Source: Methanobacteriota archaeon
Lineage (GTDB): Archaea > Thermoplasmatota > E2 > DHVEG-1
DNA: 64,000 bases
Reading direction: 5' to 3'
NCBI GenBank assembly: GCA_963769885.1
Contig: CAVYNH010000006.1
Coordinates: 640,001 to 704,000, forward strand
In this document: positions 22,112 to 44,043 of the stretch, one piece after another
Layout: every line of letters starts with the position of its first letter
Numbering within the stretch: position 1 is the first letter of the stretch
Position numbers and translations under genes: made by a program
Notes under the pieces: model-generated
The model's database searches: none
The model's input: the letters and a program-made list of their open reading frames with translations, nothing else
What the model was told of the DNA's origin: nothing

Positions 22112-22201
22112 GTATCCTAGATGGTCAGAAATAAATGATGTACCCTAGATGGTACATCGATATGAAAACCAGTACTATGGAGGATACACAGTAGAGATTT
22201 T
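22112..22201 (+). repeat. Three tandem copies of the cassette site (L0a-c)
   Basis: 22112 GTATCCTAGA TGGTCAGAAA TAAATGATGT; 22140 GTACCCTAGA TGGTACATCG ATATGAAAAC; 22172 GTACTATGGA GGATACACAG TAGAGATTTT. Confidence 0.7.
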
Positions 22202-22250
22202 TTATCAGGGACGAAGTATAATGCTCGTGAGGAGCCATGAATCATGCGGC

Positions 22251-22280
22251 ACTTACTACCGGGTCAGATTGATGAAAAAC
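22251..22280 (+). repeat. Degenerate cassette site L1
   Basis: ACTTACTACC GGGTCAGATT GATGAAAAAC; core matches, arms poor. Confidence 0.4.
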
Positions 22281-22432
22281 CCCCCCCACCACACTCCACC
22301 GTCACCCGTATGAGCCTCACCTCCTACGACGGGCCCGATTTCCTTTACGGTCTCCACTCTGGAAAAACGTGCGCGTCAATATGCGCAGCAGCCGTCAATA
22401 TATCATTATTCCAGGACGCCGTAACGTCCTTT

Positions 22433-24265
22433 TCATGGTGCCTGTTTTGGCGTCCTGTCGATGTTGGTGACAGGGATCTTTATCGTGTGGTAGTTCGGCC
22501 AATCTCCGTACGTAATCCGGATTTCCCCATGGATGATTTTCGGTTGAGATAGAGGTTCGCCCCAGTAATTATGAGACCAATGGTTCCATAAGCAGTTTGT
22601 GAAGGAGGCTGGCTCATCACCGCAATTAACAAACGAGTTGCCTCGCATAATCATCACCCGGCAGGACGTGAGCGTAATGGAACCGTTGCCGTCCGTGACG
22701 GTATTGTCTCGGACAAACCCTAGTTTCACGCGAGTCAAAATGATACCACGGTCACCAGCCGGGGGGTGAATGTCATTCTTGATGATTCGGTTTAGGATGC
22801 CGTATTCCACGGCGATGACTCCTTGCTGGAGCGCATTATTCTCAACGAGGGCATTGTGGCATACGCTTAACCCGATGCCGCCCGATTCAAACACATTGTC
22901 CCGGATGATGACGTGCCGTGAGGAGCTGCAGATGAGCCGGCTATACACATTCGTATAGGTTCCATGGACGATGTTGTTGACGAACTTGACGTTCGTGCTC
23001 CCTCCGATAGCGGCTTCGCCTAGATCACTGGAAAACCCAAGATCGTTGTGCACGATTGTGGTATCGTGGCAGTTTCTGACGTCGAGGAGGTTGAAGAAGA
23101 TCTCCCAGCGGCTGTCACTTATGGTATTATCGCTGATGGTCGTGCCCTTGCAGTTCTCCAGGGTGATGCTGGAGAGGCAGGACGTTAGGTTGTTATTCGT
23201 GATGACGCAGTCGTTGCAGTTCCAGCACTGAACCGCGAGATTCGCATCGGTGAGTACCGAGTCGCGGATGGTGATGGCGGTGCAGTTGATGAGGATGACT
23301 TGGCCCCCGTTCTGGGTGATTGTCTGGTCGGTCTCCCTCTCTAAATAGCGGATGGGGGCGCCGTTGAGGAGGTTTCCTGTCATTGTGTTGCCGTAGCATT
23401 GGTAGACTTCGAGGCCGTCATGGACGAAGACGTTGTCGGTAATCTCGCAGTCGGTACACATACCCATGCCAAGACCGGCGACCGTGTTGTTCTCGCAGAG
23501 GTTCCCGTGTATCTGTGAGGAGTTGGATAACACAAGGCAGATGCCGTATTCATTGCCGATCAGGATGTTGTCCATGATGTGTGTTCGTAGTGAGTCGTTG
23601 GCGTAGATGCTCATTTCGTCTTCATTGGTGACCGTGTTGTTGTCGATGGTGTTGTCTGGGCAGGCGAAGAGTTCGACTTGGAGGTCAAAACTTGAGCTGC
23701 GGATGGAGTTGTGGGTGATGCGGTTGAAGGTCGAGTCGTGTTCCAGCCGGATGCTGATGCCGTTCCACCGGAAGTAGCTCTCGCTGATGAGGCAGTGTGA
23801 GGAGGCGTTGAGGCGGATGCCCAGTTCGCTGGTTTGGATGACGAGGTCGGTGAGGATGACGTTGTTGGCGTGGACGTTGATGCATGCAGGGTACGGCCAC
23901 CATTCGGCGGTGTTCTTTATCAGAAATTCTTTGATGGTGACGCCGTCGGTGGTGACGTGTATTGTGTCGGCGGTGTCGTTGCCGATGATGATTGTCGAGT
24001 TGCGGTCTTCTCCTTGGAGCGTGATGGTTTTTGGAATGGTGAGGTATTCATAGTATGGTGCGGAGTCGTTGAAGACGTAGATGGTGTCGCCATTGTTTGA
24101 GGCGTTTATGGCTTGTTGGATGGTGGTGTAGTTGCCGGGTCCGCTGCCGCCGACGTACAATGTCGCTTCCATGCGTGCATCATCGTGTGGATTGACGCCT
24201 TGGGTTGGTGTGACACAGCTGAGCGTTACCAGTATGCTTGCCACTATGACCATAAATCCTTTCAT
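22433..24265 (-). CDS. Secreted NosD/CASH beta-helix protein (cassette cargo)
   Basis: LYVGGSGPGNYTTIQQAI, long N-rich beta-helix, HNYW. Confidence 0.88.
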   Translation of the reverse strand: MKGFMVIVASILVTLSCVTPTQGVNPHDDARMEATLYVGGSGPGNYTTIQQAINASNNGDTIYVFNDSAPYYEYLTIPKTITLQGEDRNSTIIIGNDTADTIHVTTDGVTIKEFLIKNTAEWWPYPACINVHANNVILTDLVIQTSELGIRLNASSHCLISESYFRWNGISIRLEHDSTFNRITHNSIRSSSFDLQVELFACPDNTIDNNTVTNEDEMSIYANDSLRTHIMDNILIGNEYGICLVLSNSSQIHGNLCENNTVAGLGMGMCTDCEITDNVFVHDGLEVYQCYGNTMTGNLLNGAPIRYLERETDQTITQNGGQVILINCTAITIRDSVLTDANLAVQCWNCNDCVITNNNLTSCLSSITLENCKGTTISDNTISDSRWEIFFNLLDVRNCHDTTIVHNDLGFSSDLGEAAIGGSTNVKFVNNIVHGTYTNVYSRLICSSSRHVIIRDNVFESGGIGLSVCHNALVENNALQQGVIAVEYGILNRIIKNDIHPPAGDRGIILTRVKLGFVRDNTVTDGNGSITLTSCRVMIMRGNSFVNCGDEPASFTNCLWNHWSHNYWGEPLSQPKIIHGEIRITYGDWPNYHTIKIPVTNIDRTPKQAP

Positions 24266-24405
24266 AGTTACGCTTCCTCAGTGTTTTTTTAAAGAATATT
24301 CTCGTATTAATATTTTTTCTTATAAAATAATTCGTCTTTATAAGAAGGGTTGTATGTGATTTCTTCAAACCATCGTGCGTGTTGAAAGGATTCGATATTT
24401 TCAGG

Positions 24406-24435
24406 AAGCCGCATAGGGTCAAAGGTGCAAAAAGG
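24406..24435 (+). repeat. Cassette site L2 (degenerate)
   Basis: AAGCCGCATA GGGTCAAAGG TGCAAAAAGG; keeps A10, GGTCAA and T21. Confidence 0.55.
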
Positions 24436-24532
24436 AGAAGTCGCTTCAGAAAAATCGAGAAATAGAGATTGACCTCATCCCCTGGTGCAGGTACCCCCAG
24501 TCGGAGTACGCTTTCACCTGGTTCGTGTCGTT

Positions 24533-25603
24533 TTAGTATGGCTGGAATGGTGTTTGGGCGGGTCGCCAGTCGAATGCCACTCGGGTCTGGGGCACTACCT
24601 CGGTGATTGCGAAGATGTAGATGCAGAATATAGTAAATCCGAAGATGGGATGCGGAAAGAGGCTGGGTTTTCCCCAGTAGTTATGTCGCCAGTGTGATGC
24701 CTCGATGACTTTGTAGTCCTTGAAATATTGGTTCCAGGATTGGTTGATCATCCCCCGTAGTTTGTAGATTGCTTCGCTTATGGGGCCGTTGATGAACCGG
24801 GCGCCGGTTCCCGCGTCTTTAAAGTTGTTTTCGGTGACGAGGTCTTTGCATAGGATGAGTCCTATGCCGAGCTCTGAGTGGTTCATGGTGTTCCGTTGGA
24901 ATGTGTTGTGATAGCCCCATTCATCAATGATGCAGGTGCCTTCATCGGTGAAGTAGTTCGAGGAGATGTTACTGTCATGCGTATATTCGAGGATAATGCC
25001 TCTGCTGTTTCCTTGGAAGGTGTTGTGTGCGATGGTGGTCTTGCGGACGCCTGAGCATCGTATCCCGTAGCTCACGTCGATGAAAGAGGAGTGGTCGATC
25101 GTGTTCCCTTGGAGGAGCGGTGCGGTCCGGTTGTAGTCACTAATGTAGATGCCATACGCGCCTCTCTCAAAACTCATGTCTGAAATGAGGTTGTTGTTCG
25201 TATAGATCTCCAAGGCAAATCCATTCGAGATGGCGATGAGCGTGATGCCGCTGATGGTGACGTTGTCTGCTAGGATTCTGATGAGAGGACTGTACGGACC
25301 AGGGTATGGGGCTGTTCCATTGAGGATTGTGGTCTGTCGCTGTTCGCCGAGTAGCGTGATGGAGTGGTTGACGAGGACTGGTTCTCGGTACGGCGCGGAG
25401 TCGTCGTAGACGAAGACGGTGTCGCCGTCCGTGGCTGCGTCGACCGCTGCTTGGATTGTGGTGTAGTTGCCTGGGTTGCTGCCTCCGACGTAGAGCCATG
25501 TGGAGAGCGGTGCGTTCTTCGGTGTTGGTGTCATCCCTACGGCGGGGATTGCAAGGCAGACGGTCACCAGCAGTACACAGACGATTTGTTGAAGCTTTGC
25601 CAT
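24533..25603 (-). CDS. Secreted NosD/CASH beta-helix protein (cassette cargo)
   Basis: LYVGGSNPGNYTTIQ, HNYW, FDWRPAQTP. Confidence 0.88.
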   Translation of the reverse strand: MAKLQQIVCVLLVTVCLAIPAVGMTPTPKNAPLSTWLYVGGSNPGNYTTIQAAVDAATDGDTVFVYDDSAPYREPVLVNHSITLLGEQRQTTILNGTAPYPGPYSPLIRILADNVTISGITLIAISNGFALEIYTNNNLISDMSFERGAYGIYISDYNRTAPLLQGNTIDHSSFIDVSYGIRCSGVRKTTIAHNTFQGNSRGIILEYTHDSNISSNYFTDEGTCIIDEWGYHNTFQRNTMNHSELGIGLILCKDLVTENNFKDAGTGARFINGPISEAIYKLRGMINQSWNQYFKDYKVIEASHWRHNYWGKPSLFPHPIFGFTIFCIYIFAITEVVPQTRVAFDWRPAQTPFQPY

Positions 25604-25828
25604 TCTTTCTTCCCTTTTATTATAAATGAAGGGTGGATATTAAAAAGTATGGGTATAAATAAGAAAAGGTGGTTTTAAAAGGTAAATAATAGCCTAGTTT
25701 CTTTCTTGGATGTCTCCCGTGTGCATGTCATGTAATAATGAGAATGTACTTCTTGCTTGCTTCTGGCTTTGGGAGAGTGGGTATTTTGAGACAACGCCGA
25801 ATTCATTCACATAGCCAAAATTAACAGG

Positions 25829-25858
25829 GTACTCTTCATGGTCAAAGATTCAAGAAAG
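25829..25858 (+). repeat. Cassette site L3
   Basis: GTACTCTTCA TGGTCAAAGA TTCAAGAAAG. Confidence 0.75.
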
Positions 25859-25925
25859 TGAAGTAACGTAAGAAAAAGAGAATAATATAAATATTAGGAA
25901 AGAATTATTTTAATGAAGATTCCAA

Positions 25926-27234
25926 ATGAAAAAAATGATTATCCGCCAGAGTATTGCGATATTCTTGGTGGCTTTACTCTTCCCTACCGTCTTCGTTCCT
26001 CCGATGTCTCCTCTCGCGGCACGCCACGTTCCTCTAGGAAGCAGTCCCCTCTGCTCAAACGACAGCTGCGAGCTGGATCTGCTCATCGGTGAGATTAATT
26101 TCTCCATTCTTCCACCAACGCCACCGCATCCGTTCAACATCTCATATTCTTTGCCTCCAATCTACAACAACCAGGCGCCCATCCTCGTTTCCATCTTGAA
26201 TGACACCACGGCGGACATCCTCAAGTACGCCATTATCAATGACACTGAGCCGAATGTGCGCATCACCTTCCTGATTTCCTCAAACGCGACGCCAACAGCT
26301 CCGTTCCTCCATTTCATGTTTTGGGTTCTCGGTACAAAACAATGATTTCAGTGGGTTTGTGAACGATTCACGGATTCCGACGCTAGACGAACTGCCCGAG
26401 GAGACCAAGGCATGGCTTGCCGCGACAGAGGCTGTGCAATCCCATAATATTCTGATTCGCATGAAGGCCCACTCGCTCCTCCTTAGAACCGACTGTCTGA
26501 ACGTGCTTGCCGCACGCATTGTGAAATACACCTCGCTGCATGAGATGCGGCTTTGGCTATGGTATTTCTTTAACGCCCTGCCGACGAACACCCGCTCGGG
26601 ATGGGCCAAATACTTGGATGCCGCATCGTCGTTGTTCTTCGGAGGAACGTGCACGGGCAGAGCCAATCTTGGCACCGCGCTCTTCCGGGCGAACGGCGTA
26701 CCCGCCAGAGTCCTTCACGTCATGCCAACATGGTCCAGCGGGTGGTACGATATGCATTACATCAGTGAGTATTACAGTCTAGACAACGGCTGGGTCCTTG
26801 CGGAGACTGTGTTGGGCATCACCCCGTTGGAACAAAAGCAGAATATCATTCTGCGGGTGAACTATCCCGCGGATGAGGATACAGCAGGTAATCGAGGGGA
26901 CTATTACGGCGGATGTGAACCGTGGTTTTGGATGGATGCCAACGTGATGATCTATTGGACTCACCAGGGGTCCGGTGCGCAATCCTGGCTTCATAATGCC
27001 TTGTGGACAGACAACGACACAAGTGCTCAAAGCTTGGCCATCACGAAGATGGTCTATCCGATGTTCATCAAATACGCAGGGGTGGAATTGACTGGGGAGA
27101 ACCAGCACCATTACTCCAATGCGATTCTTGCTGAGGTGAGTGCCATCAACTGCTTCACCCAGTTGGACATCACTGGGTACCTTGCGAACATGACGCTAGC
27201 GTATCAAGAATTTTCTCAGATATCGTACCCGTAA
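25926..27234 (+). CDS. Secreted transglutaminase-like protein (apparent frameshift at 26331-26332)
   Basis: GTCTGRANL..ALFRANGVPARV, MHYISEYY, GWVLAE; deleting one G fuses the two ORFs. Confidence 0.82.
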
Positions 27235-27242
27235 TTTTTAGT

Positions 27243-27272
27243 GAACCCCTTATGGTCAACCCTATAGGGATG
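27243..27272 (+). repeat. Cassette site L4
   Basis: GAACCCCTTA TGGTCAACCC TATAGGGATG, 8 bp after the upstream stop. Confidence 0.75.
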
Positions 27273-27349
27273 GTTTTATAATCTATGAAGGTTATCATCT
27301 TTGATAACTAACATATATTTATATACCTTGAATGCCCATACATACGCAT

Positions 27350-27931
27350 ATGCCAATTATGAAGTATCAAGACCAACTTCACACCGTCCTTCAAAAACCA
27401 GTCTTCGGCGTCAGCGATTTCGTCGCAAATGGCATCCCTCGACCTTACGTAAAACAACTCCTTCATCGACTGGAAACCTCGGGTAAAATCACCCGCATCG
27501 AACGCGGCAAGTACACCACCTCAGAAGACCCGATTACCGTCAGCGTCTACCTCACGAGCCCCTGCTACCTTTCCATGTGGACCGCATTGTCCATCCGCAA
27601 ACTCACGACACAGCTACCGTTCTCGGTTGAAATCGTCACGACACGTCAACGATATCGGCGAACAATCACATTCAAAGGAACTCCCATTGTCTTCTATCGT
27701 GTTCGCCCGACGATGCTCTATGGCTACGAGAATATCCTGTGGAAAGACCATCGAGTTCCCGTGGCACGGCCGGAGAAGATTATCGTCGACGCCCTCTACT
27801 TCCACGCTATACCGTTAGGGGAACTCGATGAGGTCTTCGACGCAGCTGAGCATAAGCTCTTGCGGACCTATGCGCAGATGACGGGCGATGCCCGTATCAT
27901 CGCCATCATAAAGGAGCGGCTCGCATGTTGA
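27350..27931 (+). CDS. Type IV TA antitoxin, AbiEi-like
   Basis: N-terminal wHTH (L.RLE..GKITRIERGKY), YLSMWTAL, PEK.IVD; overlaps the toxin gene; exact start uncertain. Confidence 0.85.
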   Translation: MPIMKYQDQLHTVLQKPVFGVSDFVANGIPRPYVKQLLHRLETSGKITRIERGKYTTSEDPITVSVYLTSPCYLSMWTALSIRKLTTQLPFSVEIVTTRQRYRRTITFKGTPIVFYRVRPTMLYGYENILWKDHRVPVARPEKIIVDALYFHAIPLGELDEVFDAAEHKLLRTYAQMTGDARIIAIIKERLAC

Positions 27932-28662
27932 CGTCACCAGAGGTTAAACGCTATGCCCATGCCCGCCGTATCACCCTGCTTGACCAGGCATGGAAGGACT
28001 ACCTCCAGGACCTTGTCCTCTCGCTGCTCTACCGTCAGTGGCCCAGTCTCCTGTTCCGCGGTGGAACCTGCATCTGGAAGGTCATGCACGGCGACCGGTT
28101 CTCCGAGGACCTCGACCTATGCCTTGAGACGAAGGCGCCTGGTACGATTGAGGAATACCTCACCAAGGAGCTCTCGTACTATGGGTTTTCCTGCGCAGTC
28201 CGGAGGAAGAAGCAGACGGAAAGCATGCTGTTCCTCGCCTTAGGAATCACCTCGCCTACGCACCCGCGTGAAATCACGTTAGCGGTTGAGATCCTGCGGG
28301 CATCTCCCTGCGCCCGGCGCAAGGAAACCGTGACGATGTACTCGCCCTATCCGGATATCGCGCCTATTGAGATTAATGTCCCTCATCGAGATGAGATCAT
28401 AGCTGACAAGATAGGCGCGGTATGCCAGCGGGACAAGCCGCGCGACATCCACGACCTTTATCTCCTCCTGAAACAAGGTGGGCATGTTGACATGGTATTG
28501 GTCCAAGAAAGGATCCCGCATTTCACTATCGATATGCTTCGGGAAAAACTTCGGGAGAAAAAGAGACTCTGGAAAAGTCTAGGACCCCTTGTCGTGACGA
28601 AGCTGCCATCGTTCGATGAGGAGGTCGCTTACATCACATCTTTTTTCGCATGTGGCTGTTAA
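27925..28662 (+). CDS. Type IV TA toxin, AbiEii/AbiGii nucleotidyltransferase
   Basis: FRGGT, RFSEDLD, ADKI.A...RDKPRDIHDL. Confidence 0.9.
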   Translation: MLTSPEVKRYAHARRITLLDQAWKDYLQDLVLSLLYRQWPSLLFRGGTCIWKVMHGDRFSEDLDLCLETKAPGTIEEYLTKELSYYGFSCAVRRKKQTESMLFLALGITSPTHPREITLAVEILRASPCARRKETVTMYSPYPDIAPIEINVPHRDEIIADKIGAVCQRDKPRDIHDLYLLLKQGGHVDMVLVQERIPHFTIDMLREKLREKKRLWKSLGPLVVTKLPSFDEEVAYITSFFACGC

Positions 28663-28704
28663 TTCCTATAAAATTCTGCCCTTTTTCATATAAACAAATT
28701 CAAT

Positions 28705-28734
28705 GTATCCTGGAGGGTCAGACCTAGAAGAATC
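28705..28734 (+). repeat. Cassette site L5
   Basis: GTATCCTGGA GGGTCAGACC TAGAAGAATC. Confidence 0.8.
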
Positions 28735-28918
28735 ATTACATTGACCCCTACATTTTTGTAATAATATGATACTATTCATATTTTGTAGAAGTAATTTTTT
28801 TTTTATGTCGATTGGCTATTTTTCCAGTTGTCTTCACAATAGGGATGAAACAATAAATACCTCTACTTTTTTTTAAAATACAAAAAGTTTATTAATTTGT
28901 AGAGGTATATTGATAATC

Positions 28919-29824
28919 ATGGTGTTTGTGAAAAAGAAAGTCGTCCAGGGGAAATCCTACTATTATCTCGAGCACAGCTATCGGAAGGATGGAAAAGTCC
29001 ACAAACTCACAAAATATCTTGGAACGACACTACCCCCCTCTCTCGACCACGAAAAAGAGACGTTCCTGGTCAGTCACTATCAAGAGATCTGGTACCCCCT
29101 TTTCGAGATTATTAAGAAAAACTATACGTCCGAGCAGGTAAAACAACCGCGGGATATTGCGAAAAAAGAAATGGAGCGTTTCACCACCATGTTCACCTAT
29201 ACGACGAACCGTATCGAAGGATCAGCCCTGACCCTGCGCGAAACAGCGGAACTCCTCGAACATGGTTTATCTCCCCGGCATAGGCCACTGAGTGATGTGA
29301 AAGAAGCGGAGGCGCATAAAGCCGTCTTTAACGCGATGCTTACCTATGATCACGAGCTGAGCCTTTCAACGGTTTTGCACTGGCATAAAAACCTTTTTTC
29401 CCAGACCAAAGCTTCCGACGCCGGTCGCATCCGCACGTACCAAGTCGGCATCTCAGGTAGTAGATACGAACCACCTCTCCCGATAGAGCTTGAGTTCCTC
29501 CTCCATGAGTTCTTTCACTGGTACCATAAAAACAAACACACCATGCATCCGGTTCATCTTGCAGCACTCGTTCACTTACGGTTTGTCAGCATCCATCCTT
29601 TTGGAGACGGGAACGGACGCCTGTCTCGACTTCTGATGAACTATGTTTTGCACAAGTATGGATATCCCATGCTCATCATCGATTACAACCAACGGCATAG
29701 CTATTACACAGCGCTTGAACGTAGTCACCTCACGAAGGATGAGAGCATCTTTGTCCAGTGGTTTTTCAAACGCTATTGCAAGGAATACAGAAGGTTTTTA
29801 CAGGAAAAAAGAAAAGTCAAATAA
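28919..29824 (+). CDS. Fic family protein
   Basis: HPFGDGNGRLSR catalytic motif; TNRIEGS inhibitory-helix-like motif. Confidence 0.93.
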   Translation: MVFVKKKVVQGKSYYYLEHSYRKDGKVHKLTKYLGTTLPPSLDHEKETFLVSHYQEIWYPLFEIIKKNYTSEQVKQPRDIAKKEMERFTTMFTYTTNRIEGSALTLRETAELLEHGLSPRHRPLSDVKEAEAHKAVFNAMLTYDHELSLSTVLHWHKNLFSQTKASDAGRIRTYQVGISGSRYEPPLPIELEFLLHEFFHWYHKNKHTMHPVHLAALVHLRFVSIHPFGDGNGRLSRLLMNYVLHKYGYPMLIIDYNQRHSYYTALERSHLTKDESIFVQWFFKRYCKEYRRFLQEKRKVK

Positions 29825-29838
29825 CTGCTGCCTATGCG

Positions 29839-29868
29839 GTACCAGAGATGGCCACACTTACGGGGTAC
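29839..29868 (+). repeat. Cassette site L6
   Basis: GTACCAGAGA TGGCCACACT TACGGGGTAC (GTACC...GGTAC dyad) between convergent stops. Confidence 0.7.
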
Positions 29869-29901
29869 TTGAGATAGCGAAATCGACTGGCAGAACAACT
29901 T

Positions 29902-31098
29902 TCAGCGTAAAAAAATGGGGAAAACGAAGCATAGAAAAACGCACGCCTTCCCAGTAATTGTTTCATTCGCAGCGGTCACGGTAAGTCTGGTCAGGCCAAA
30001 CCCAACAACCTTGTCGTTCACCTGGACATCGCCCCATGCCGGAATCGTCTCATGAAACGGTTTTTCCTTGGGGAACACAAAGCCAGTCACTGTCATCGTT
30101 CCGTTGATATTAATTGGCATTCCACCGTTGTTATGGATGGTTGCGGTGATGCCAAGGCCTCCCTCGATGCTGATCGTGATATTGTACGGGATGGCGAAGG
30201 ACCGGTAGTGTGGTACTTCGCGGTTCCCGGCGTTGTCGACAGAGTAAAACATGAGATGATGATCGCCGGGTTCACTGACTTGGAAAGGATGGGTATAGTT
30301 GGTCACCGGGCCGCCGTCCAATGAGTAGACGGTGTAGGCTACTCCGGAATAATTATCGAATGCGGTGAGGATGACTGTTATGGTATTGGTCCCGTGCAGT
30401 TGGCACGTCGTGACTGGGGGTACGGTGTCGTTTTCTGTGATATGGACTTCAAGATTCCAGTTGCCCCAAATCCCCTGCGCCAGAAGCTCAGTCCAGTAGG
30501 TCAGCCAGGCCAAGTCGCCCTTCGTGGGGGTGCACGTATTTTCATCGTAGCCGCCGGGGTAGGTGCCGACCGGTGCGTCCCAGCCGACACCGACCCAGAC
30601 CGTATCATTCTCCGTGAAAGGATAAGGGTCTGTCAGGTTGAAGTAGAAATAGTCATTGATGACATCGCAGAAGCCGGAGGCGACCATCGTCGTGTTCTCT
30701 GTAGGGCTGGGCGGGTGATCGACGCCGGTGTACATCCAGGCGGTATAGTTTTCCTCGACGCAATATTCATCGGGTTGGGTCGGGCAGCCGTGCATGATTT
30801 TAATCTTGTCAAAAGCTCCGTGTAAACCTGCAAGTTCGGTTGGCGTGAATTTGATGATTTCATATAACGGTATTTCAAAACCTTTTGCCCATCCAATCGC
30901 GTTCTCACAGGTGCCGTCATCATAATGCAGGTAATAATCAGTTGAGGATGGCGCTGCAGTACCTGCATGGAGCCAGACGCCGGTTTCGTATGGTTCTGCC
31001 ACAGTGCAGAGAGTGTTGTTGGAGTTGATTGCCACAGCTGCTGGGATTGTCGCGAAAAGTAAAAGAACGATGACGGTACCAGCTGTTTCCTTTTTCAT
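29902..31098 (-). CDS. Secreted protein with Ig-like domain
   Basis: Signal peptide; DTVPPVT...DNYSGVAYTVYSLDGG...FYSVDNAGNRE Ig-like module. Confidence 0.78.
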   Translation of the reverse strand: MKKETAGTVIVLLLFATIPAAVAINSNNTLCTVAEPYETGVWLHAGTAAPSSTDYYLHYDDGTCENAIGWAKGFEIPLYEIIKFTPTELAGLHGAFDKIKIMHGCPTQPDEYCVEENYTAWMYTGVDHPPSPTENTTMVASGFCDVINDYFYFNLTDPYPFTENDTVWVGVGWDAPVGTYPGGYDENTCTPTKGDLAWLTYWTELLAQGIWGNWNLEVHITENDTVPPVTTCQLHGTNTITVILTAFDNYSGVAYTVYSLDGGPVTNYTHPFQVSEPGDHHLMFYSVDNAGNREVPHYRSFAIPYNITISIEGGLGITATIHNNGGMPININGTMTVTGFVFPKEKPFHETIPAWGDVQVNDKVVGFGLTRLTVTAANETITGKACVFLCFVFPIFLR

Positions 31099-31283
31099 TG
31101 AACTCCCTCTTTTCCCAACAAAATCATCGTCGAGACGTGATATAAATATTTCTATTGTCAAAGAAGGTTATGTGGGATTTTTTTAGATATTATTTTCCTT
31201 TAGGGAAAAATAAAGTAATTCTCTGATTTTCCCGAATCTAAAAAAGGTTTACAATCAATTTTTTTTTAACTACTAACCAGAGG

Positions 31284-31313
31284 GCAGCCTACACGGTCAA
31301 GATAAGATGGAAA
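31284..31313 (+). repeat. Cassette site L7
   Basis: GCAGCCTACA CGGTCAAGAT AAGATGGAAA; shares CCTACACGGTCAA with L9. Confidence 0.75.
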
Positions 31314-33691: not shown

Positions 33692-33696
33692 AAAAA

Positions 33697-35200: not shown

Positions 35201-35205
35201 AATTT

Positions 35206-36048: not shown

Positions 36049-36523
36049 TAGTATTATCAATACTAATAGCCTATTTTAAGCTGAGTTTCATAGAGACCGT
36101 CAACCAGGCTAATTTTATTGGGTCAGCTTGATGTACGTCCAGATAAGAGTTGAGCAATTACGGCCTGAACCAAATCCATGTTATAAAATAAATTAGTATT
36201 ATTTTGCTTAAATACTTTATACTTTAAAGAAATTTTAGAATATACAAAGCCCCCTCAAGTTCAGGAAAATCGTTACAGGAGAAGTTGAATACGGCGTTGT
36301 CTCAAACCTCAAAGGCTCCTCCTGAAGCCCTTTCATGACAAGGAAAATGGTCTAAGGAGAGGTCGAATACTTTTGAGACAAAGCCATTGAATACTTTCGA
36401 TGACCTCCTCCAGGAGTATATAAGGAGAGAAATCATTCATTTACTCCAAGAAAAAATAGGTCAAAATGACCCCCAGATGGTTTGAGCATCCAGGGGTCTG
36501 AGACCATAATAGAGGTGTCTATT

Positions 36524-37504
36524 ATGATCCCGAACGGGAACAATACCAATAGTGGTAATAAGATTTTGGTGCAGGCCAGTCTCGAGCAGATAGTAATCGA
36601 AAAGCCATTGATCACACTACAACCTAAACCGGTCATGCCTTCTATCGTGCCGACTCCTTCTCCGAAGAATGAAACTGACAACGACAAACTCTTGGACAAG
36701 TTCAACCGCTATATGCGTGAGAACAACTACAGCAAGAGCACCATCTACATGTATACGAAGGTCGTCGGCCAGATGCTTGCCATGAAAGATTCGTTCTCCA
36801 TGACGGAGGATGATCTCAGCGACGTTCGGCTCTATCTTGTTGAACGCTATGCCCAGAATGGGAACCGGGCGAGGTTCGCTGCTATCAATGCTTTCTGCAA
36901 GCATATCCTCAAACGAAAAGACCTACATCTCAAGATCCCCAGTCCCGTCATCAAGAACAAAGACGTGTTCACCAACGAGCAGATTGACGCTATCCTTGCC
37001 ATTGCGAAAACGAAGAATAAACTCGCTTATGCCGTCCTTCAGACTTTGTACCATTGCGGACTACGTAAGATGGAGTTGTGCAATCTGAATCTTGCTGACC
37101 TTAATTTCGACACCATGGAATTGAAACTGAACAACACCAAGACAGGCAACGCGATTGTCTCCATGACCACCGCCGTTGCCAAGTCTCTGCAGGACTATAT
37201 TCAAAATGAACGACCTAAGAAAGAAGATGAACAAGCGGTATTCCTCAGTAAGAAAGGTGTGCGAATCGGTGAATGGACTGTCCGAGGATACCTCAAGGAA
37301 TGTGGGAAAGAAGCCGGGATTAAATCCCGGATGTATCCACACATGCTACGAGCATCATGCATTACACATCTTTTAAACAAAGGAGTGAATCCACTAACCG
37401 TTCAGCTCCATGCAAGGCATAGGAACTTCATGACAACCATGAGATATAATCGGCCAACTCAGCAGCAGATGAAAACGGATATCGAACGAATTTTCTCGAA
37501 GTAA
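36524..37504 (+). CDS. Tyrosine recombinase/integrase (XerC/D-like)
   Basis: SAM-like domain (NYSKSTIYMY), GLRKMEL (R), TKT (K), HMLR (H-x-x-R), ARH, TMRY (Y); GAGGTG SD at 36512. Confidence 0.95.
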   Translation: MIPNGNNTNSGNKILVQASLEQIVIEKPLITLQPKPVMPSIVPTPSPKNETDNDKLLDKFNRYMRENNYSKSTIYMYTKVVGQMLAMKDSFSMTEDDLSDVRLYLVERYAQNGNRARFAAINAFCKHILKRKDLHLKIPSPVIKNKDVFTNEQIDAILAIAKTKNKLAYAVLQTLYHCGLRKMELCNLNLADLNFDTMELKLNNTKTGNAIVSMTTAVAKSLQDYIQNERPKKEDEQAVFLSKKGVRIGEWTVRGYLKECGKEAGIKSRMYPHMLRASCITHLLNKGVNPLTVQLHARHRNFMTTMRYNRPTQQQMKTDIERIFSK

Positions 37505-37568
37505 TGTGATGATTTTCAAGTTGGGAGTATATTTTTAAATAACGATCAGTTGTATATTTTGGATACTT

Positions 37569-38459
37569 ATGCCAATATTTGACGATGTCGGCAAAGCGCT
37601 TAAAAGAACTAGCGATGTAATTAAAAAAACAACCGATGGGATAGCGAAAAATATTGCTGCAAGTCAAGAAAATGCAAGGAGAAAACGGGAGATTTTAAAT
37701 AGATTCGTTATGGATGATTTGAAAAAAATATGCAAGGAATATGGAATTGGCGAGCCAGATCCATACGAAGAATTTTTTGGAGAAAGAACAAAGAAGAAAA
37801 TAACACGAAACGATTACATAGATTATATTGAAGAGAGGCTAGATTTGAAACACATCGAAGACTTTTGTAATAACCATAGAATAAAGAGGCAAATTGAAGT
37901 TGAATCTGGAGTCGAGGCACAAAAAGACCATCCTTCTCGACCAGAGCCTCCAATAGTAAATGAATTACGGAATGAAGAAAACAAAATCCAAGAAAAGACT
38001 TCAATAGTGACGACAGCAAATCAGAAACCACAGGGAGAAACTCACGATATCCTTAATACAATAAAGGAACAGTTCAAACCAGAGCCCTGCATGAACGAAA
38101 AAGAACTACAGGGTCAGCTAATGATCTGGTTCAATATTATGTATCCCAATCGGGTCGTGCGAGAGGTCTCCACGATGGCTGGAAAAGTCGATTTTGCGAT
38201 TGATAAAAATAGACTTGGACTCGAGGTAAAAATAGCTTTTGACAAGGGGACCTTGAGAAACCTAGTAGGTCAAATTCTCGCTTATAAAAAATATTTCAAT
38301 GAAGTAGGTATAATTTTGATGGATGTCAATGATATGCCAAATTCGATAATTACTGAATACATTAATGAATATAGAAATCAAGGCGTCGAAACCATAGTAA
38401 TTCAAGGGCAAATTAGGAAAAAGAAAGGAAGACCCAGAGAAGTCCGTGTAAAATATTAA
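37569..38459 (+). CDS. Protein with C-terminal PD-(D/E)xK nuclease-like domain
   Basis: EKELQ..L...REV....GKVDFAI....GLEVK. Confidence 0.7.
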   Translation: MPIFDDVGKALKRTSDVIKKTTDGIAKNIAASQENARRKREILNRFVMDDLKKICKEYGIGEPDPYEEFFGERTKKKITRNDYIDYIEERLDLKHIEDFCNNHRIKRQIEVESGVEAQKDHPSRPEPPIVNELRNEENKIQEKTSIVTTANQKPQGETHDILNTIKEQFKPEPCMNEKELQGQLMIWFNIMYPNRVVREVSTMAGKVDFAIDKNRLGLEVKIAFDKGTLRNLVGQILAYKKYFNEVGIILMDVNDMPNSIITEYINEYRNQGVETIVIQGQIRKKKGRPREVRVKY

Positions 38460-38503
38460 ATATCATTCAGGTTTCTTCTATTAATCATAATCTCAATTGA
38501 GAT

Positions 38504-38533
38504 ATTTATCTTAGCAATACTACTACTTGGTAA
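38504..38533 (-). repeat. Cassette site R1 (AGTAT core class)
   Basis: Minus strand TTACCAAGTA GTAGTATTGC TAAGATAAAT. Confidence 0.65.
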
Positions 38534-38612
38534 CTTATTAAAATGATTGATTTACTTATTAGAATGGTTTATTAAAAGATAAAAGATGTATTTGAGCTGG
38601 AGTTGTAAGACT

Positions 38613-39497
38613 ATGAAGAAAGCGGCATTTTTCTTACCTGTCTTTGTTATTTTATCTATCATCTTGTTAACTGGATGTACTGAAACAACTGGGCCTCTCT
38701 TAATGTCGATTACCAAATTCACAGCTGAACCTAATATTATAGCACAAGGCCAAACAGCTAACCTTAGTTGGCAAACATTCGGTGCTGTACAAGTAACGAT
38801 TGACCATGGCATCGGGAATGTGAGCATTTATGGATCAAGAATCATTGCTCCAACTAATACTACAACATACACTTTAACAGCATCAAATATTACTCATACA
38901 TTAACAGCCACAGTTCAAATAATCGTTCATTCAAATGAACAGACCGGAATATTAGTAAATTCATTCACAGTTAATCCGCGTATCGTACATCAAGGTCAGA
39001 CTGCAAACCTCACATGGAACATCACTGGAGCTAGTGTCGTCCAAATTGATCATGGTATCGGCAACATTAGCCTCTCTGGTACAAGAATTATTATGCCTTT
39101 AGAAACAACTACGTATACTATTACCTGCTCAAATGCAGTGAACACAGTAACGGCTACAACTCAAATTCTCGTCGAAGAAACAGAATCACCTCCTCCTGCC
39201 ACTACGCCATCAATTGCGTGCACTTTAGATAGTAGCAACAATAAAATTACTATAGCTAGCGCTGACCCCAACATTCAATGGAGCAATCTAAGGATTACAA
39301 ATAGTAGTACTCCCGCCTGTCATTGGGCAATATATGCAAATGGCGGGGTAACTAACCAATCTACAAATGTCCTTCCCTCCGGGGAGGTTATCGCTGGAGA
39401 TTATTTGAAAATCTGGGGCGTAACTGGAAATGTGCAGTTTACATGGGCTTACGTGCCAACGAATTCGTTAATTGGAGTTTGGACGATAAACGTATAA
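38613..39497 (+). CDS. Lipoprotein with two tandem Ig-like repeats
   Basis: LTGC lipobox; duplicated F...P.I..QGQTANL.W...GA..V.IDHGIGN.S..G.RII.P..TTTYT. Confidence 0.82.
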   Translation: MKKAAFFLPVFVILSIILLTGCTETTGPLLMSITKFTAEPNIIAQGQTANLSWQTFGAVQVTIDHGIGNVSIYGSRIIAPTNTTTYTLTASNITHTLTATVQIIVHSNEQTGILVNSFTVNPRIVHQGQTANLTWNITGASVVQIDHGIGNISLSGTRIIMPLETTTYTITCSNAVNTVTATTQILVEETESPPPATTPSIACTLDSSNNKITIASADPNIQWSNLRITNSSTPACHWAIYANGGVTNQSTNVLPSGEVIAGDYLKIWGVTGNVQFTWAYVPTNSLIGVWTINV

Positions 39498-39502
39498 CCT
39501 AA

Positions 39503-39532
39503 AAATCTCCTAGCAATTCCAATATAAAAACC
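39503..39532 (-). repeat. Cassette site R2
   Basis: Minus strand GGTTTTTATA TTGGAATTGC TAGGAGATTT, 5 bp after the upstream stop. Confidence 0.75.
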
Positions 39533-39623
39533 GTTTGGATAGCAATCATTATAAGAATATAACTCTTTTAGCAATTAATTATACATTAAAAAAGTAAAGA
39601 AAATTAAATTAAATGGAAACCGT

Positions 39624-40988
39624 ATGAAAAAAAGAATAATTCTCATTTCAATTATTTCTATTTCACTTTTCTTGAATATTTTATTTTCCGGTTGTCTACA
39701 AAACAATACTATAACTACCGAAAATAATGGACAAAATTCAAAAAATGCTAATCAAGATAGACAAGAACAACCAGAGCCACAACAAACATACAAAGATTCA
39801 GACAGAGATGGTTATTACGATTACCAGGATAGTTTTCCAAATGACCCATCTGAATGGAAAGACAGCGATCATGATGGTGTCGGAGATAATTCAGATAAGT
39901 ATCCCTACGATTATGATAATGATGGATATGCAGACTCAGTTGATATCAAGAAAAACGGTGATGCTGCCATCAAAATATCCTTAAAAAAATTCAATGTCGA
40001 GGACGAATTGGATTTTCTTTTTGTGAGTGTTGAAGTTTATTTTGAGATATACATTAACGGAAGAATGGAAGCAAGAATCGACGATAATGGCGAATCATGG
40101 CATGCAACTGTTGGAGAAACATATTCAATAGGAGAAAGCGTCATCTATAACATAGATGATGACCAGAGGTACACGAATGTTAGAATCATCATGTGGGATG
40201 ACGATTACCTACTAGAAAATGATCCAATTGATATTGATGGAACCGGTACTGATGCAAAAGCATTAGACATCGTTTTTGACGCAATTACAGGTACTTGGAC
40301 AGGGGATGATAATGACGGCTTTACAGATGGTAGTGATGATGGAAGTGCAAATTATGATGACGACGATGGTAGTTTGTGGTATAGTCTTCAATTAGTTGAG
40401 GCTCAATATAACAAAATCTATCATTGGACATTTGATTGGAATCAATGGGAGTTACGCATTAATATTCCACCTACCAGCTATGCCTATTACAGACATTCAA
40501 ACGTCGATAGATCTCCTATTTTACCATCACAGATGGCTGCCTTTGTCACTTCTGATGATTCCATTATTAAAGACATCGCCCAACGATTACAGTCACATTG
40601 CAACGAAGCTGGGTATAGTTCATCTAAAACGGTTAATTTCATATTGAGTTTTGTTCAAAGTTTAGAATACACTTATGATAATGCTTCTACACCAGCAAAT
40701 GATTATTGGCGTTTTCCCGTGGAGACATTAATGGATGAAACTGGAGATTGCGAAGATACCTCCGTTCTCTTCGCTGCTATTATGGAAGCAGTTGGATTTG
40801 ATGCTGTTTTAATACATCTACCAGGCCATCTAGCAGTTGGAATATCATGTAATGAGGGATCTGGTTCGTATTATGATTACAATGGAAAATCGTATTATTA
40901 TTGCGAAACAACTGGCACAGGGTGGAATATGGGAAATATTCCATCTAATTTTGAGGAGCAATCAGCAAATATTATAGATGTTGATTAA
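39624..40988 (+). CDS. Lipoprotein with Ca-binding repeats and C-terminal transglutaminase-like domain
   Basis: FSGC lipobox; DSDRDGYYD..D.FPNDP repeats; PVETL....GDCED, GHLAVG, YYCETT. Confidence 0.85.
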   Translation: MKKRIILISIISISLFLNILFSGCLQNNTITTENNGQNSKNANQDRQEQPEPQQTYKDSDRDGYYDYQDSFPNDPSEWKDSDHDGVGDNSDKYPYDYDNDGYADSVDIKKNGDAAIKISLKKFNVEDELDFLFVSVEVYFEIYINGRMEARIDDNGESWHATVGETYSIGESVIYNIDDDQRYTNVRIIMWDDDYLLENDPIDIDGTGTDAKALDIVFDAITGTWTGDDNDGFTDGSDDGSANYDDDDGSLWYSLQLVEAQYNKIYHWTFDWNQWELRINIPPTSYAYYRHSNVDRSPILPSQMAAFVTSDDSIIKDIAQRLQSHCNEAGYSSSKTVNFILSFVQSLEYTYDNASTPANDYWRFPVETLMDETGDCEDTSVLFAAIMEAVGFDAVLIHLPGHLAVGISCNEGSGSYYDYNGKSYYYCETTGTGWNMGNIPSNFEEQSANIIDVD

Positions 40989-41021
40989 ATAATTTGAAGA
41001 AACTAATCCTTGGAGGAGTAA

Positions 41022-41051
41022 TTGTCCTCTAGCAATTCCAATACCTGTTAT
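41022..41051 (-). repeat. Cassette site R3
   Basis: Minus strand ATAACAGGTA TTGGAATTGC TAGAGGACAA, between convergent stops. Confidence 0.75.
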
Positions 41052-41085
41052 TTTACCTTGAAAGCTCAGTATAGGAAAAGAAAAA

Positions 41086-42000
41086 CTACCACGTCCACGT
41101 GTAATCGTACGGTTGTGGTGCAGGGCGCCAGTCAATCCCGGACTTCAAGGGGAAGATGATGGTTGGAAGGCGATGCAGAAACGGGATATCGCTCCTCCAT
41201 CCGATCCAGTAGTAATTCTTGTGCCAGTAGGACGGCGCACCGCCGCGCGCGGGCACCAAGAAGTTATTCTCGATAATCTTGCTACCCGCACCGGCCCCGG
41301 AGAGGCTGATAGCAGTGGCACCGCACAAATCGCACGGCCAGGAGAAGTTGTTGTGTGCTACCAGCGTGTTCTGAGCACCGGCGGTGATCAGTAAATCGTA
41401 CCCGAAGTGGTTGTCGAAGTGATTCTGCCGAATGGTGTTGTCACAGCCCCCTGAAAGAAGAATTCCCGCTTCATACAACTCAATGAGTTCGAAATAGTTA
41501 TGAAAGATTGACGAATTAGCAACGTTGTTGAAAGTAATGGTACTCATGGTGGTGTAAAGGTCGCAATTCGAAATATTGACATCCGAAACGCCGTCAGCGA
41601 TGATGGCATAGGAGGTGATGATCTCGCCACCTTCGTACGTGATGCGAAAGCCATCTACTTTGACGGAATCGCGGATGATGTGAATGGCGGGCCGTTGCCA
41701 ATCGCATGCTTGCAGGGATACATCGTGGTGGTCTGCAATGAGCGAAATGGATTTGTTGACAACAACATTTTCCCAGTAGAAGGGTTCGTGACGGTACACG
41801 TACACGGTGTCGCCATCAAGGGAGGCGTTGATCGCATCTTGAATGGCTGTGTAGTTCCCAGGGCCGCTCCCACCAACGTACAGTGTGGCCCCAGTGTACG
41901 TCGTGGGTGATGGTAGGGATGCTTCGTTCGCAAAGGCGAAGACAGGAGGCATCAAGGCGAGAACGCCGATCATTCCAAAGACTACTATTTTATTTCTCAT
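41086..42000 (-). CDS. Secreted NosD/CASH beta-helix protein (cassette cargo)
   Basis: Start MRNKIVV after GGAGG; LYVGGSGPGNY; IDWRPAPQPY. Confidence 0.86.
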   Translation of the reverse strand: MRNKIVVFGMIGVLALMPPVFAFANEASLPSPTTYTGATLYVGGSGPGNYTAIQDAINASLDGDTVYVYRHEPFYWENVVVNKSISLIADHHDVSLQACDWQRPAIHIIRDSVKVDGFRITYEGGEIITSYAIIADGVSDVNISNCDLYTTMSTITFNNVANSSIFHNYFELIELYEAGILLSGGCDNTIRQNHFDNHFGYDLLITAGAQNTLVAHNNFSWPCDLCGATAISLSGAGAGSKIIENNFLVPARGGAPSYWHKNYYWIGWRSDIPFLHRLPTIIFPLKSGIDWRPAPQPYDYTWTW

Positions 42001-42025
42001 GAATTTTCCTCCGTTATCGATCAAG

Positions 42026-43312
42026 TCAAATCGTGTACGGTTGTCGAGCAGGATGCCAGTCGACATTGACCCATGGAATATTGAAAGGAATGGATTGGAA
42101 GGGATTGAAATAGTAGTTGTAGGTGAAGCTTGTTCCAAGAATGACCTTTGGGAAGGCTCGAGGCATGGTCCAATAGTTATGCCACCACAAGGTCCGCGTG
42201 TACGCGAAGCGGGCGTTCCTGATATTGTGCATGAAGTTGTTTTCCTCGACGATGTTTGGTTTCAAGGCAAAGTAGTGCAGATTGTCCCCAGCAATTGAGA
42301 TGCCGAGGGCATTGTGTTCAATCGAGTTTCGTTCAATGGTATTTCGCTGGCAGGTGGCAAGCTTGATTCCGATGGAACAATTCGTAATGGAATTGTGGAT
42401 GACGGTGTTTGCATCTGACGAGAGGAGACTAATACCAACCGAGACGGTGGAGATATTGAGGTCGCGCACGGTCATATAATGACAGGAAATAAGGAAGAGT
42501 TGTCCAACATCATTGCTAGCATCGATGGTCTTGTTTGCTTCTCCATTTAACATCAGAAAAGACTTGCCGTTGACGTTATTTTTGCTAAAGGAATTATTGT
42601 ACGCATCCGTATCTTCGAGGTTGAACCCACACTGGATGCAGGTGTTTCCTTCAAAGGTGTTCATCCGGGAGTAGACAATGTTGATCCCTATCAACCCACC
42701 ATGGGAGATGATGGTGTTGTTGGCGATGACATCATCCTGATCGTAAATGACGTTGATGGCTGTACTTGCCTTTTCTTCCAGGATGAAGGTGTTTCCGATC
42801 ACCGTGCTATTCCGTTGACCACGGAAGTCGAGATTATTATCCCACTTGTTAAAGTCATCGTAGTACACGTACATCGTGTTATTGTCGAAATGGTTAAACG
42901 AGCCAGCATAGATTCCCATGGAATTCTTAACAATATTATTGTCAAGGGTGATACTGCTCCTCATGTTCGAATAGAAGAACCCATCAATCGTAAATCCCGT
43001 AATTCGAATCTTGTCCTCGAATACTCCAAAAGAACTAACTTCGGTCGTGGTTCTGTTCTCCCCGACGATGGTCAGTTGTTTGGTGATATCAGCCTCCCCG
43101 TACGGTGAACTATCGTCATAGACAAAGATGAAGTCCCCATCATATGCGTCACGAACTGCCGCATTGATCGTGGTATAGTTACCAGGTCCGCTGCCACCAA
43201 CGTACAAGATATTTTCTCTTCCGCCTTTTCTTTGTCCTAAGTCGCGCGCAGTAACGGAAACGCAAAAGCCAATAACAATGAAGATTGCACCAAGAATGAA
43301 CAGCTTGTTCAT
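42026..43312 (-). CDS. Secreted NosD/CASH beta-helix protein (cassette cargo)
   Basis: LYVGGSGPGNYTTI; HNYW; VDWHPARQPY. Confidence 0.86.
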   Translation of the reverse strand: MNKLFILGAIFIVIGFCVSVTARDLGQRKGGRENILYVGGSGPGNYTTINAAVRDAYDGDFIFVYDDSSPYGEADITKQLTIVGENRTTTEVSSFGVFEDKIRITGFTIDGFFYSNMRSSITLDNNIVKNSMGIYAGSFNHFDNNTMYVYYDDFNKWDNNLDFRGQRNSTVIGNTFILEEKASTAINVIYDQDDVIANNTIISHGGLIGINIVYSRMNTFEGNTCIQCGFNLEDTDAYNNSFSKNNVNGKSFLMLNGEANKTIDASNDVGQLFLISCHYMTVRDLNISTVSVGISLLSSDANTVIHNSITNCSIGIKLATCQRNTIERNSIEHNALGISIAGDNLHYFALKPNIVEENNFMHNIRNARFAYTRTLWWHNYWTMPRAFPKVILGTSFTYNYYFNPFQSIPFNIPWVNVDWHPARQPYTI

Positions 43313-43421
43313 GAATTGCCTCCATATATAGTAAAAGTTATCAGTTATTTAAATATTCACATGAAAATCACATAGCCTTGTTCTTACAGGGTATGAGATA
43401 TTCTTCAAGAAAAAGTGCTTT

Positions 43422-43451
43422 CTTTCCCCTAGCAATTCCACTGTAAGGTAC
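43422..43451 (-). repeat. Cassette site R4
   Basis: Minus strand GTACCTTACA GTGGAATTGC TAGGGGAAAG; arms nearly identical to L9. Confidence 0.85.
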
Positions 43452-43461
43452 TATAGTGTGA

Positions 43462-43491
43462 AAATCATCTAGCGATACTGCTATAAGATAA
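43462..43491 (-). repeat. Cassette site R4b (AGTAT core class)
   Basis: Minus strand TTATCTTATA GCAGTATCGC TAGATGATTT, 40 bp from R4. Confidence 0.65.
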
Positions 43492-43540
43492 ATCACACTT
43501 TTCTAATAAATTATAAATAGCTTCTATCCAATTTCTTTTC

Positions 43541-43927
43541 ATGGGTAGGATAGTCAAAGATATAATTGTCGATGGTAAAATTAGACAAGCGATCTTTGAT
43601 AGTGGTTCAGTCGTCAGTTACGTGACGGAAAAAGCTTTACCTGAATCAGCCGTTTGTATTAATGTATCCCCCATAACATCTCGAGTAGCGGGTTCCACTC
43701 ATCAACTAACAAAGCGCTGCTTCATCCCAAGCAAACTCGATGGAAAGGATTTCGATTTTGATGCATTTGTCATCGATAAACTCGGTAAAGTCCAAGAAAA
43801 AGGAGACGTAGATCTGGATTTTTTAATAGGCGCAGCAACGATGGAAGAATGGTCCATCAGTATAAATCCAAAGGAGCAAACTGTTGACCTTCGCGGATTG
43901 AAAAGACGAGAATTTCTCTCTTTCTAA
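43541..43927 (+). CDS. Retropepsin-like (clan AA) aspartyl protease
   Basis: AIFDSGS and FLIGA motifs in a 128-aa single lobe. Confidence 0.82.
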   Translation: MGRIVKDIIVDGKIRQAIFDSGSVVSYVTEKALPESAVCINVSPITSRVAGSTHQLTKRCFIPSKLDGKDFDFDAFVIDKLGKVQEKGDVDLDFLIGAATMEEWSISINPKEQTVDLRGLKRREFLSF

Positions 43928-44013
43928 ATTTCAAATCTATTATCTTCCAAGAAAAGAAATCCTTCCGATGGAAATGGAAGAAAAAGACATAAAATTACAA
44001 TGAAATACTATTA

Positions 44014-44043
44014 AATTTCCAGATTAATTCCACTATGAGGTAA
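44014..44043 (-). repeat. Cassette site R5 (distal end)
   Basis: Minus strand TTACCTCATA GTGGAATTAA TCTGGAAATT; 1 bp from the DUF2207 stop. Confidence 0.75.

Follow-up and report, generated by a model that had tools for sequence, protein, structure and literature searches.

Integrons, the classic example of gene capture at specific sites, are thought to need a specialised integrase together with folded, single-stranded attC sites. In the pdif modules of Acinetobacter plasmids, the flanking sites have inverse orientation, and the enzymes are XerC/D, which serve the host in housekeeping. Canonical IntI and attC characterise the archaeal integrons described by Ghaly et al. 2022 (PMC9668308), and no mention of cassettes is made in a 2021 review of archaeal tyrosine recombinases. 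Here we analyse a 64-kb window of the Thermoplasmatota genome G000 (2.09 Mb, 7 contigs; the window is C6:640001-704000, and its coordinates are counted from its first base), in which the gene for a predicted XerA-like tyrosine recombinase lies between two rows of ~30-bp sites that separate small, unrelated genes. An initial annotation of this DNA had proposed an integron-like system and knew of no description of one in the lineage; in agreement with this, a literature search found no published description of such cassette arrays.

We put the probability that the locus is an integron-like, two-array cassette platform using short core-type sites at roughly 0.65. This reading draws directly on the sites, on their restriction to one recombinase clade, on a layout that recurs between loci, and on cassette mosaicism with borders at the sites. 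The same comparative evidence, together with the unrelated cargo and the Xer-like enzyme, speaks for the platform that was initially proposed, but the dyad symmetry that had been part of the proposal is weak.

Fifteen sites were accepted in the window, nine of an L type on the + strand, left of the recombinase, and six of an R type on the - strand, to its right. From left to right, sites, rows and recombinase are as follows:

22112-22141, + strand: L site 1, the outermost of the left row (matrix score 28-29; a second, degenerate copy starts at 22140)
22142-33132, genes in both orientations: left row of 8 cassettes (three NosD-like, a transglutaminase-like pair, AbiEi/AbiEii, Fic, a 419-aa unknown, ParE with antitoxin)
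24406-24435, + strand: L site 2, the weakest accepted L site (score 19.4-19.5, slightly above the background maximum of ~18)
25829-25858, + strand: L site 3 (matrix; in the top 5 with the foreign matrix)
27243-27272, + strand: L site 4 (matrix scans)
28705-28734, + strand: L site 5 (rank 2 with the foreign matrix)
29839-29868, + strand: L site 6, centre GGCCACAC (matrix; homology to a cassette relic in G001 begins at 29866)
31284-31313, + strand: L site 7 (matrix; in the top 5 with the foreign matrix)
32547-32576, + strand: L site 8, the sole true dyad, CTTCTAGG-6-CCTAGAAG, adjoining the ParE stop codon
33133-33162, + strand: L0, the recombinase-proximal L site, of the form GTACCC-N3-A-N-GGTCAAAGCTA (same form at C4:122742, L024:650 and L148:394)
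36524-37504, + strand: Xer-like tyrosine recombinase, 326 aa (PF00589; predicted to lack the IntI insertion)
38504-38533, - strand: R0, the recombinase-proximal R site, type a, centre TAGTATTG (type a is the first R site in 5/5 loci)
38534-44013: right row of cassettes (303-aa unknown, transglutaminase-like, NosD-like pair, 128-aa unknown)
39503-39532, - strand: R site, type b, TATTGGAATTGCTAG (matrix scans)
41022-41051, - strand: R site, type b, orthologue of G001:28776 and border of a shared NosD cassette
43422-43451, - strand: R site, type c, GTGGAATTGC (G001 homology stops inside)
43462-43491, - strand: R site, centre CAGTATCG, in tandem with 43422 (pair kept, in decayed form, in L162)
44014-44043, - strand: distal-most R site with a degenerate proximal arm, 1 nt from the stop of a DUF2207 gene

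The L class has the consensus GTACCCTnnAn GGTCAAAG CTAGnnGAA, whereas the R class consists of a variable stretch of 8 nt, TAG, TGGAATTG or TAGTATTG, and CTAGnnGA. The features kTAyC...A and CTAG..GA are common to the arms of both classes, their 8-nt centres differ, and within the sites the centre is more conserved than the arms. Both families were also found by an independent, general repeat finder used without prior knowledge (families D7 and D18). All 15 sites are wholly outside open reading frames in a region that is 85 % coding (P ~3e-13), and nearly every gap between genes or operons outside the central 5.3 kb holds one site. When matrices were trained on foreign sites only, the window sites ranked as top matches genome-wide: an R matrix built from nine R sites of other organisms and applied to all 4.17 M genome positions had the six R sites of the window and two more beside the paralogue on contig C4 within its nine best matches, and the top five of an L matrix built from just two foreign L sites were 33133, 28705, 25829 and 31284 in the window and C4:122742. 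Thus, 15 of the 16 sites in the initial annotation stand, as does, outside the central 5.3 kb, their position beside nearly every gene or operon; the exception is the motif at 22251, whose score of 16.0 is genome background against a maximum of ~18.

The inverted-arm geometry that had been assigned to the sites fared less well. Among 29 sites tested against shuffled sequence, only that at 32547 has a significant inverted repeat (8/8, P ~0.007), and the inverted-repeat or hairpin potential of the other 28 is no better than that of shuffles; a general dyad or hairpin model was dropped for this reason. Judged by their sequence, the sites are better described as asymmetric motifs of 11 + 8 + 11 nt with weakly inverted arms, the inversion amounting to ~6-7 of 11 positions in the better R sites when read by eye. 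The site consensus contains no RYYYAAC/GTTRRRY boxes. A search for the exact 15-mer of the R core in 596 Gb of genome contigs returned at least 120 single matches, in unrelated bacteria and at the number expected by chance. Two close tandem pairs of sites enclose no gene: 22112/22140, outermost in the left row, and 43422/43462, inside the right row.

Outside the window, the sites follow the recombinase. Among 118 species genomes of the order, members of the recombinase clade at 87 % identity or more occur only in G000, with two copies, and in G001, a sister species. More than one co-oriented, near-exact R core was likewise found only in these two genomes (four in G000, two in G001). G010 and G076 each have two R-core matches with a single mismatch, lying on separate contigs and opposite strands, and the matches in the other genomes are near the rate of a reversed-pattern control (14 vs 9). 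Exact L0 occurs only in G000 among the genomes of the order. These distributions support a specific association of the sites with this clade of recombinases.

The layout L(+), recombinase(+), R(-) was found in at least five independent loci: the window, C4, G001:C36, L024/L025 and L148/L149, several of the compared contigs being short. The paralogue in the same genome (C4:123922-124917, 86-87 % identity) is preceded by L0 at 122742 and a TIR-domain gene, and followed by a gene for 498 aa and R sites on the - strand at 126434 and 129182. In G001 (contig CAIRCU010000036), an orthologue of 87-88 % identity is followed by five R sites (27939 to 33904), and a decayed L0 lies ~2 kb upstream. The metagenome contigs L024/L025 (81 %) and L148/L149 (87 %) repeat this arrangement, with a + strand L0 before the recombinase and - strand R sites after it. 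A further R row, L162, is from a sample that also gave a recombinase fragment. Scanning metagenomes with the recombinase yielded seven loci, of which two duplicate L149 and L025 and the other five have no new array beside the recombinase. In all of this the proximal sites are of fixed type, with the L0 form GGTCAAAGCTA in four loci and the R0 form TTAGTAGTATTGCTAAG in five; the distal arm of R0 is variable. In three loci the R sites follow the order R0, type b (TATTGGAATTGCTAGAGGA) and type c (TAGTGGAATTGCTAG).

What these loci have in common, according to blastp and blastn, is the recombinase, the sites and only a few cassettes. The initial annotation had described the cargo as unrelated and present on both strands, which was found to be true within the window and, with regard to unrelatedness, between loci as well. 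On the two sides together there are five NosD/beta-helix proteins, two transglutaminase-like proteins, AbiEi/AbiEii, Fic, ParE with its antitoxin, and several unknowns, carried as small genes or gene pairs in cassettes of 0.5-2.4 kb. The stretch from 22 to 44 kb has a GC content of 0.33-0.52, compared with 0.55 for the genome, and in the left row it climbs with distance from the recombinase, from 0.37 in the closest part to 0.51 in the farthest, a trend that might reflect a slow shift of older cassettes to the composition of the host.

The few shared cassettes have their borders at sites. For example, the NosD cassette at 41022-43451 of the window corresponds to 28776-30340 of G001 (77-78 % identity), with homology that begins at one site and ends inside the next, and with different neighbours. 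The R0-to-b cassette of G001 (27946-28809) matches L024 12959-13815 at 88.6 % and is bounded by the two site centres, whereas the DNA between recombinase and R0 is unrelated in these two loci, the recombinase genes being 78 % identical; on the left, the flank common to both stops at the first base of L0. In L148, a gene related to the 128-aa gene adjoins an L0 site, its orientation to the site being that seen in the right row of the window. Cassette order differs as well. It is NosD_B, X with NosD_A, and a 237-aa gene in G001; NosD_A, NosD_B, a relic of the 43422/43462 pair (L162:2438-2510, with a 1-nt deletion and decay), and genes for 237, 128 and 394 aa in L162; and NosD_B, 43422, 43462, the 128-aa gene and 44014 in the window. 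With breakpoints at the sites, these rearrangements are in keeping with the shuffling of gene modules that had been proposed. Identities between L162 and G001 range, cassette by cassette, from 70 to 93.5 %, and this spread argues for separate cassette histories. At a b site, the left arm travels with the distal cassette, and the DNA past the first 8 nt of the right arm travels with the proximal one. This partition places the exchange point within the ~19 nt common to the sites, as a crossover in the centre would give.

The same ~19 identical nucleotides, shared by some sites, might also support exchange by short homology. The sites could then be passive intergenic repeats, with genes shuffled between them by homologous or microhomology-mediated recombination and the recombinase serving only its own element; the link between enzyme and sites is, after all, putative. 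This explanation appears quite improbable, because the size, the arrangement of arms and centre, and the strict co-orientation are those of recombinase core sites, because the repeats occur only beside this recombinase clade, and because the proximal sites are of a fixed, special type. Greater conservation of centres than of arms is, moreover, what strand exchange requires.

The recombinase itself has a PF00589 domain (118 bits) and a weak SAM-like N-domain. The full catalytic set of tyrosine recombinases (R-K-H-R-H/W-Y) is predicted, with Arg, H-x-x-R, His and Tyr in place in an alignment with XerA. Its best family model is archaeal XerA, NF040815, at 135.5 bits and thus below the cut-off of 220; since none of 31 genomes searched in the order reaches this cut-off, the model may fit the order poorly. 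Models of integron integrases score far lower (TIGR02249, 69 bits with a cut-off of 265; PRK15417, 32 with a cut-off of 435). The closest solved structures are XerA of T. acidophilum and P. abyssi (5HXY, 4A8E), which align end to end without large gaps. Against VchIntIA (2A3V), by contrast, query residues 228-249 (22 aa) face chain residues 179-243 (65 aa), so that ~43 residues are missing; integron integrases are marked by an additional domain around patch III. Model scores and structure alignments thus bear out the initial designation of a non-IntI, Xer-like recombinase, and by its sequence the protein is classed as XerA-like, without the IntI-specific insertion.

More distant relatives of the recombinase, at 45-59 % identity, are patchily distributed in the order. 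Four of these (L026, L150, L151 and L021, 55-57 %) are encoded by small elements inserted at the 5' end of tRNA-Cys(GCA) and are integrases of the ordinary kind; the elements are bounded by direct repeats of ~21 nt (L026:7968-12543; L150:8200, 12318; L151:5220-5290; L021:4153-4223). A direct-repeat search found no L- or R-type arrays around these relatives, only the tRNA-Cys attachment (att) repeats. In L026, L151 and the P0015 contig, the far-side neighbours are an LTD-PLD gene, a rhomboid gene and a signal-peptide peptidase gene, followed in L026 and P0015 by ThiC.

Such relatives suggest another origin for the rows, in which whole integrative elements were inserted serially at one attachment site, their integrases were later deleted, and inactive att scars were left behind. 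Apart from the classical tRNA-Cys integrases with their direct att repeats, this would fit the two partial att copies in L150, which suggest tandem elements, and the C-terminal recombinase fragments that are scattered in G000 and related genomes. We nevertheless consider serial insertion unlikely. No integrase remnant was found in any of the 12 cassettes, the modules measure just 0.5-2.4 kb, and three genomes carry shared cassettes in differing order. A single att could not give two rows with different centres and opposite orientation. There is no tRNA gene in the window, and the best match of the sites to the 44 tRNAs of the genome, 13/14, is at the level of chance.

The isolated C-terminal fragments of the recombinase (59-74 %) lie at C4:108884-109165, C4:110827, G003:C1:1753334-1753600, G018:C29:16948-17138 and L158:10001-10102, with a decayed b-like R motif ~1.7 kb from the C4 fragment. 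They may be remains of dead platforms.

The ~100 nt that precede the recombinase gene hardly vary, even where the protein is only 55 % identical (window 36421-36530, L169:7838-7928, L019:19410-19500, L024:9917-10007, L148:2953-3043, L150:9917-10007, L026:9917-10007). In the window, promoter and leader are as follows:

36421-36523, + strand: recombinase promoter and leader, with a TATA-like box, the palindrome GGTCA-N3-TGACC at 36459-36471, and two predicted hairpins

The palindrome, GGTCA-N3/4-TGACC, is near the likely transcription start in every locus and includes the L centre motif. Of the predicted hairpins, one has 10 bp and the other 7 bp with GGTG in its loop, adjoining the ATG; only one compensatory change was seen. 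The leader may provide autoregulation or translational control.

The presence of the L centre in a palindrome over the probable start of recombinase transcription, where GGTCA may be a protein-binding half-site, is also an argument for regarding the sites as operators or terminators of the island genes, bound for instance by small helix-turn-helix (HTH) proteins and without any role in recombination. We find this the least credible of the explanations and give it very little weight: gene strand does not follow site orientation, sites are found at 5' or 3' gene ends alike, the HTH genes of the window are absent from other loci that keep the sites, and homology breakpoints fall at the sites.

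According to the cassette-platform reading, a XerA-like recombinase encoded in a site-free central module would act on two rows of ~30-bp core-type sites (11 + 8 + 11), each row internally co-oriented and pointing to the recombinase from its own side. Cassettes of one or two genes, mostly with surface or defence functions and presumably with their own promoters, would be excised as circles by recombination of two sites in one row, with this enzyme as the putative catalyst. Insertion would proceed by recombination between the site of a cassette and a resident site, preferentially the proximal L0 or R0. Entry mainly at these two sites is suggested by the proximal sites, which keep one type throughout the loci, by the variability of the distal R0 arm and by the outward rise of GC in the left row. 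Tyrosine recombinases need identical centres for strand exchange; since the L centre GGTCAAAG differs from the R centres TGGAATTG and TAGTATTG, the two rows should not recombine with each other.

A more specific version can be offered only tentatively. Here, a recombinase derived from a tRNA-Cys integrase would run two orthogonal rows and distinguish their otherwise similar sites by the 8-nt centre alone, with entry at L0 and R0 and older cassettes pushed outward. The platform might then be an independent reinvention of the integron in Thermoplasmatota, using double-stranded sites and still near its origin from an integrative element.

Several points weigh against the platform reading. With weakly inverted arms, classical dimer binding on each site is only putative. 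The GC gradient of the left row could reflect gene type instead of age, and the multi-site L row, on which the dynamics of that row rest, is known from one locus. L170, a second assembly of the same strain and the only other one, is identical over 41635-44450, so that no polymorphism is seen there. Shared cassettes could be partly the result of vertical inheritance and later replacement. Finally, the central module varies between loci without recognisable sites, which the model does not explain. In the window this module comprises, in addition to the recombinase and its leader, the following:

33163-38503: site-free central module, in which the recombinase is the only content kept across loci
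33389-35200: four small HTH genes and a Swt1-like HEPN gene
35206-36060, - strand: gene for 284 aa
37569-38459: gene for 296 aa, right of the recombinase, with weak similarity to restriction endonucleases

Central modules carry defence-type genes (window 33389-35200, L169:6820-7791, L024:757-9390): the C4 locus encodes the TIR-domain protein, and L024 has a D12 methyltransferase, an HNH gene, an Eco57I-type enzyme and an SMC-like ATPase. A search for further motifs common to central modules gave none beyond AT-rich words. An open frame without a start codon at 33164-33319, which we take to be an AbrB/SpoVT-like C-terminal peptide and which has no Pfam match, abuts L0, which would fit the truncation of a gene by an insertion at this point. 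The idea that the left row had split an AbrB-like gene found no support, because joining this 3' fragment to the motif at 22251 is out of frame and, again, gives no Pfam match.

A 21-nt word, TTTGAGACAACGCC(G/C)TATTC, is found ~9 times in the genome, at 36286-36400 and 25785-25805 of the window and at C1:33611, C6:192640, C6:192742, C6:548855, C7:346058 and C7:520193. Two inverted copies frame ~115 nt upstream of the recombinase, resembling a miniature inverted-repeat element; this element is present in L148 and absent at the C4 paralogue. Left of the island there is another variable spot, with ~4.5 kb extra in the window (13522-18014) compared with G001:C36, between syntenic blocks (window 10292-13522 with G001 14228-17465, and 18014-18277 with 17533-17796). 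The 128-aa cassette protein (window 43541-43927) has a relative at 68 % identity in L163:1-20387, L164 and L165, where an extended series of small genes of one orientation is accompanied by a RusA-like resolvase and large PEGA/CarboxypepD_reg proteins. This region looks like a virus or provirus and is a possible source of cassette genes.

If the platform reading is true, the outcome known from integrons, in which small foreign cassettes that can be swapped stand in rows and are rich in genes for toxin-antitoxin systems, defence and surface proteins, is reached with a plain Xer-like enzyme and 30-bp sites, and gene capture in cassette arrays evolved more than once. It would also explain part of the turnover of accessory genes in an abundant group of uncultured archaea of freshwater sediments. 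Two site classes with common arms and different centres would constitute a natural pair of orthogonal recombination targets. Since the closest relatives that were examined have remained ordinary integrases with tRNA targets, the transition from element to platform is directly open to study.

Among known systems, the nearest by protein are tRNA-targeting integrative elements with integrases of the pNOB8/XerA type (45-59 %, four loci examined), and L150 and L026 have the same conserved leader as the window. Unlike these elements, the window has no tRNA and no direct repeats flanking the recombinase, the centres of L0 and R0 differ, and there are many integrase-less modules per locus. Archaeal XerA/dif systems, which resolve chromosome dimers (P. 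abyssi and T. acidophilum; 4A8E, 5HXY), provide the closest solved enzymes and likewise have sites of two short arms around a short centre. In contrast, the window enzyme is below the XerA cut-off (135 vs 220 bits) and is encoded by two gene copies in low-GC islands with a patchy distribution; 15 sites in the window and more on C4 compare with a single dif per chromosome, whose inverted arms are 11 nt long, the centre has 8 nt instead of 6, and dyad symmetry is weak.

The pdif modules of Acinetobacter plasmids, with their XerC/XerD sites, resemble the cassettes described here in being small accessory modules that have Xer-type core sites at their ends and undergo shuffling between replicons. 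They differ in that the window sites within a row are direct repeats and that a dedicated recombinase gene lies between the rows. With respect to integrons, the window recombinase is predicted to lack the IntI insertion (22 aa vs 65 aa in 2A3V), the sites measure ~30 nt and have no conserved hairpin, as opposed to folded attC sites of 57-141 nt with R''/L''/L'/R' boxes, there are two opposed rows with two classes of centre, and cassette genes on both strands leave no place for a common Pc promoter. The likeness to integrons nevertheless extends to a resident tyrosine recombinase beside co-oriented, short sites that separate small, unrelated and horizontally acquired cassettes, to a cargo of toxin-antitoxin and surface-protein genes, to a special, attI-like proximal site, and to a content and order that vary among relatives.

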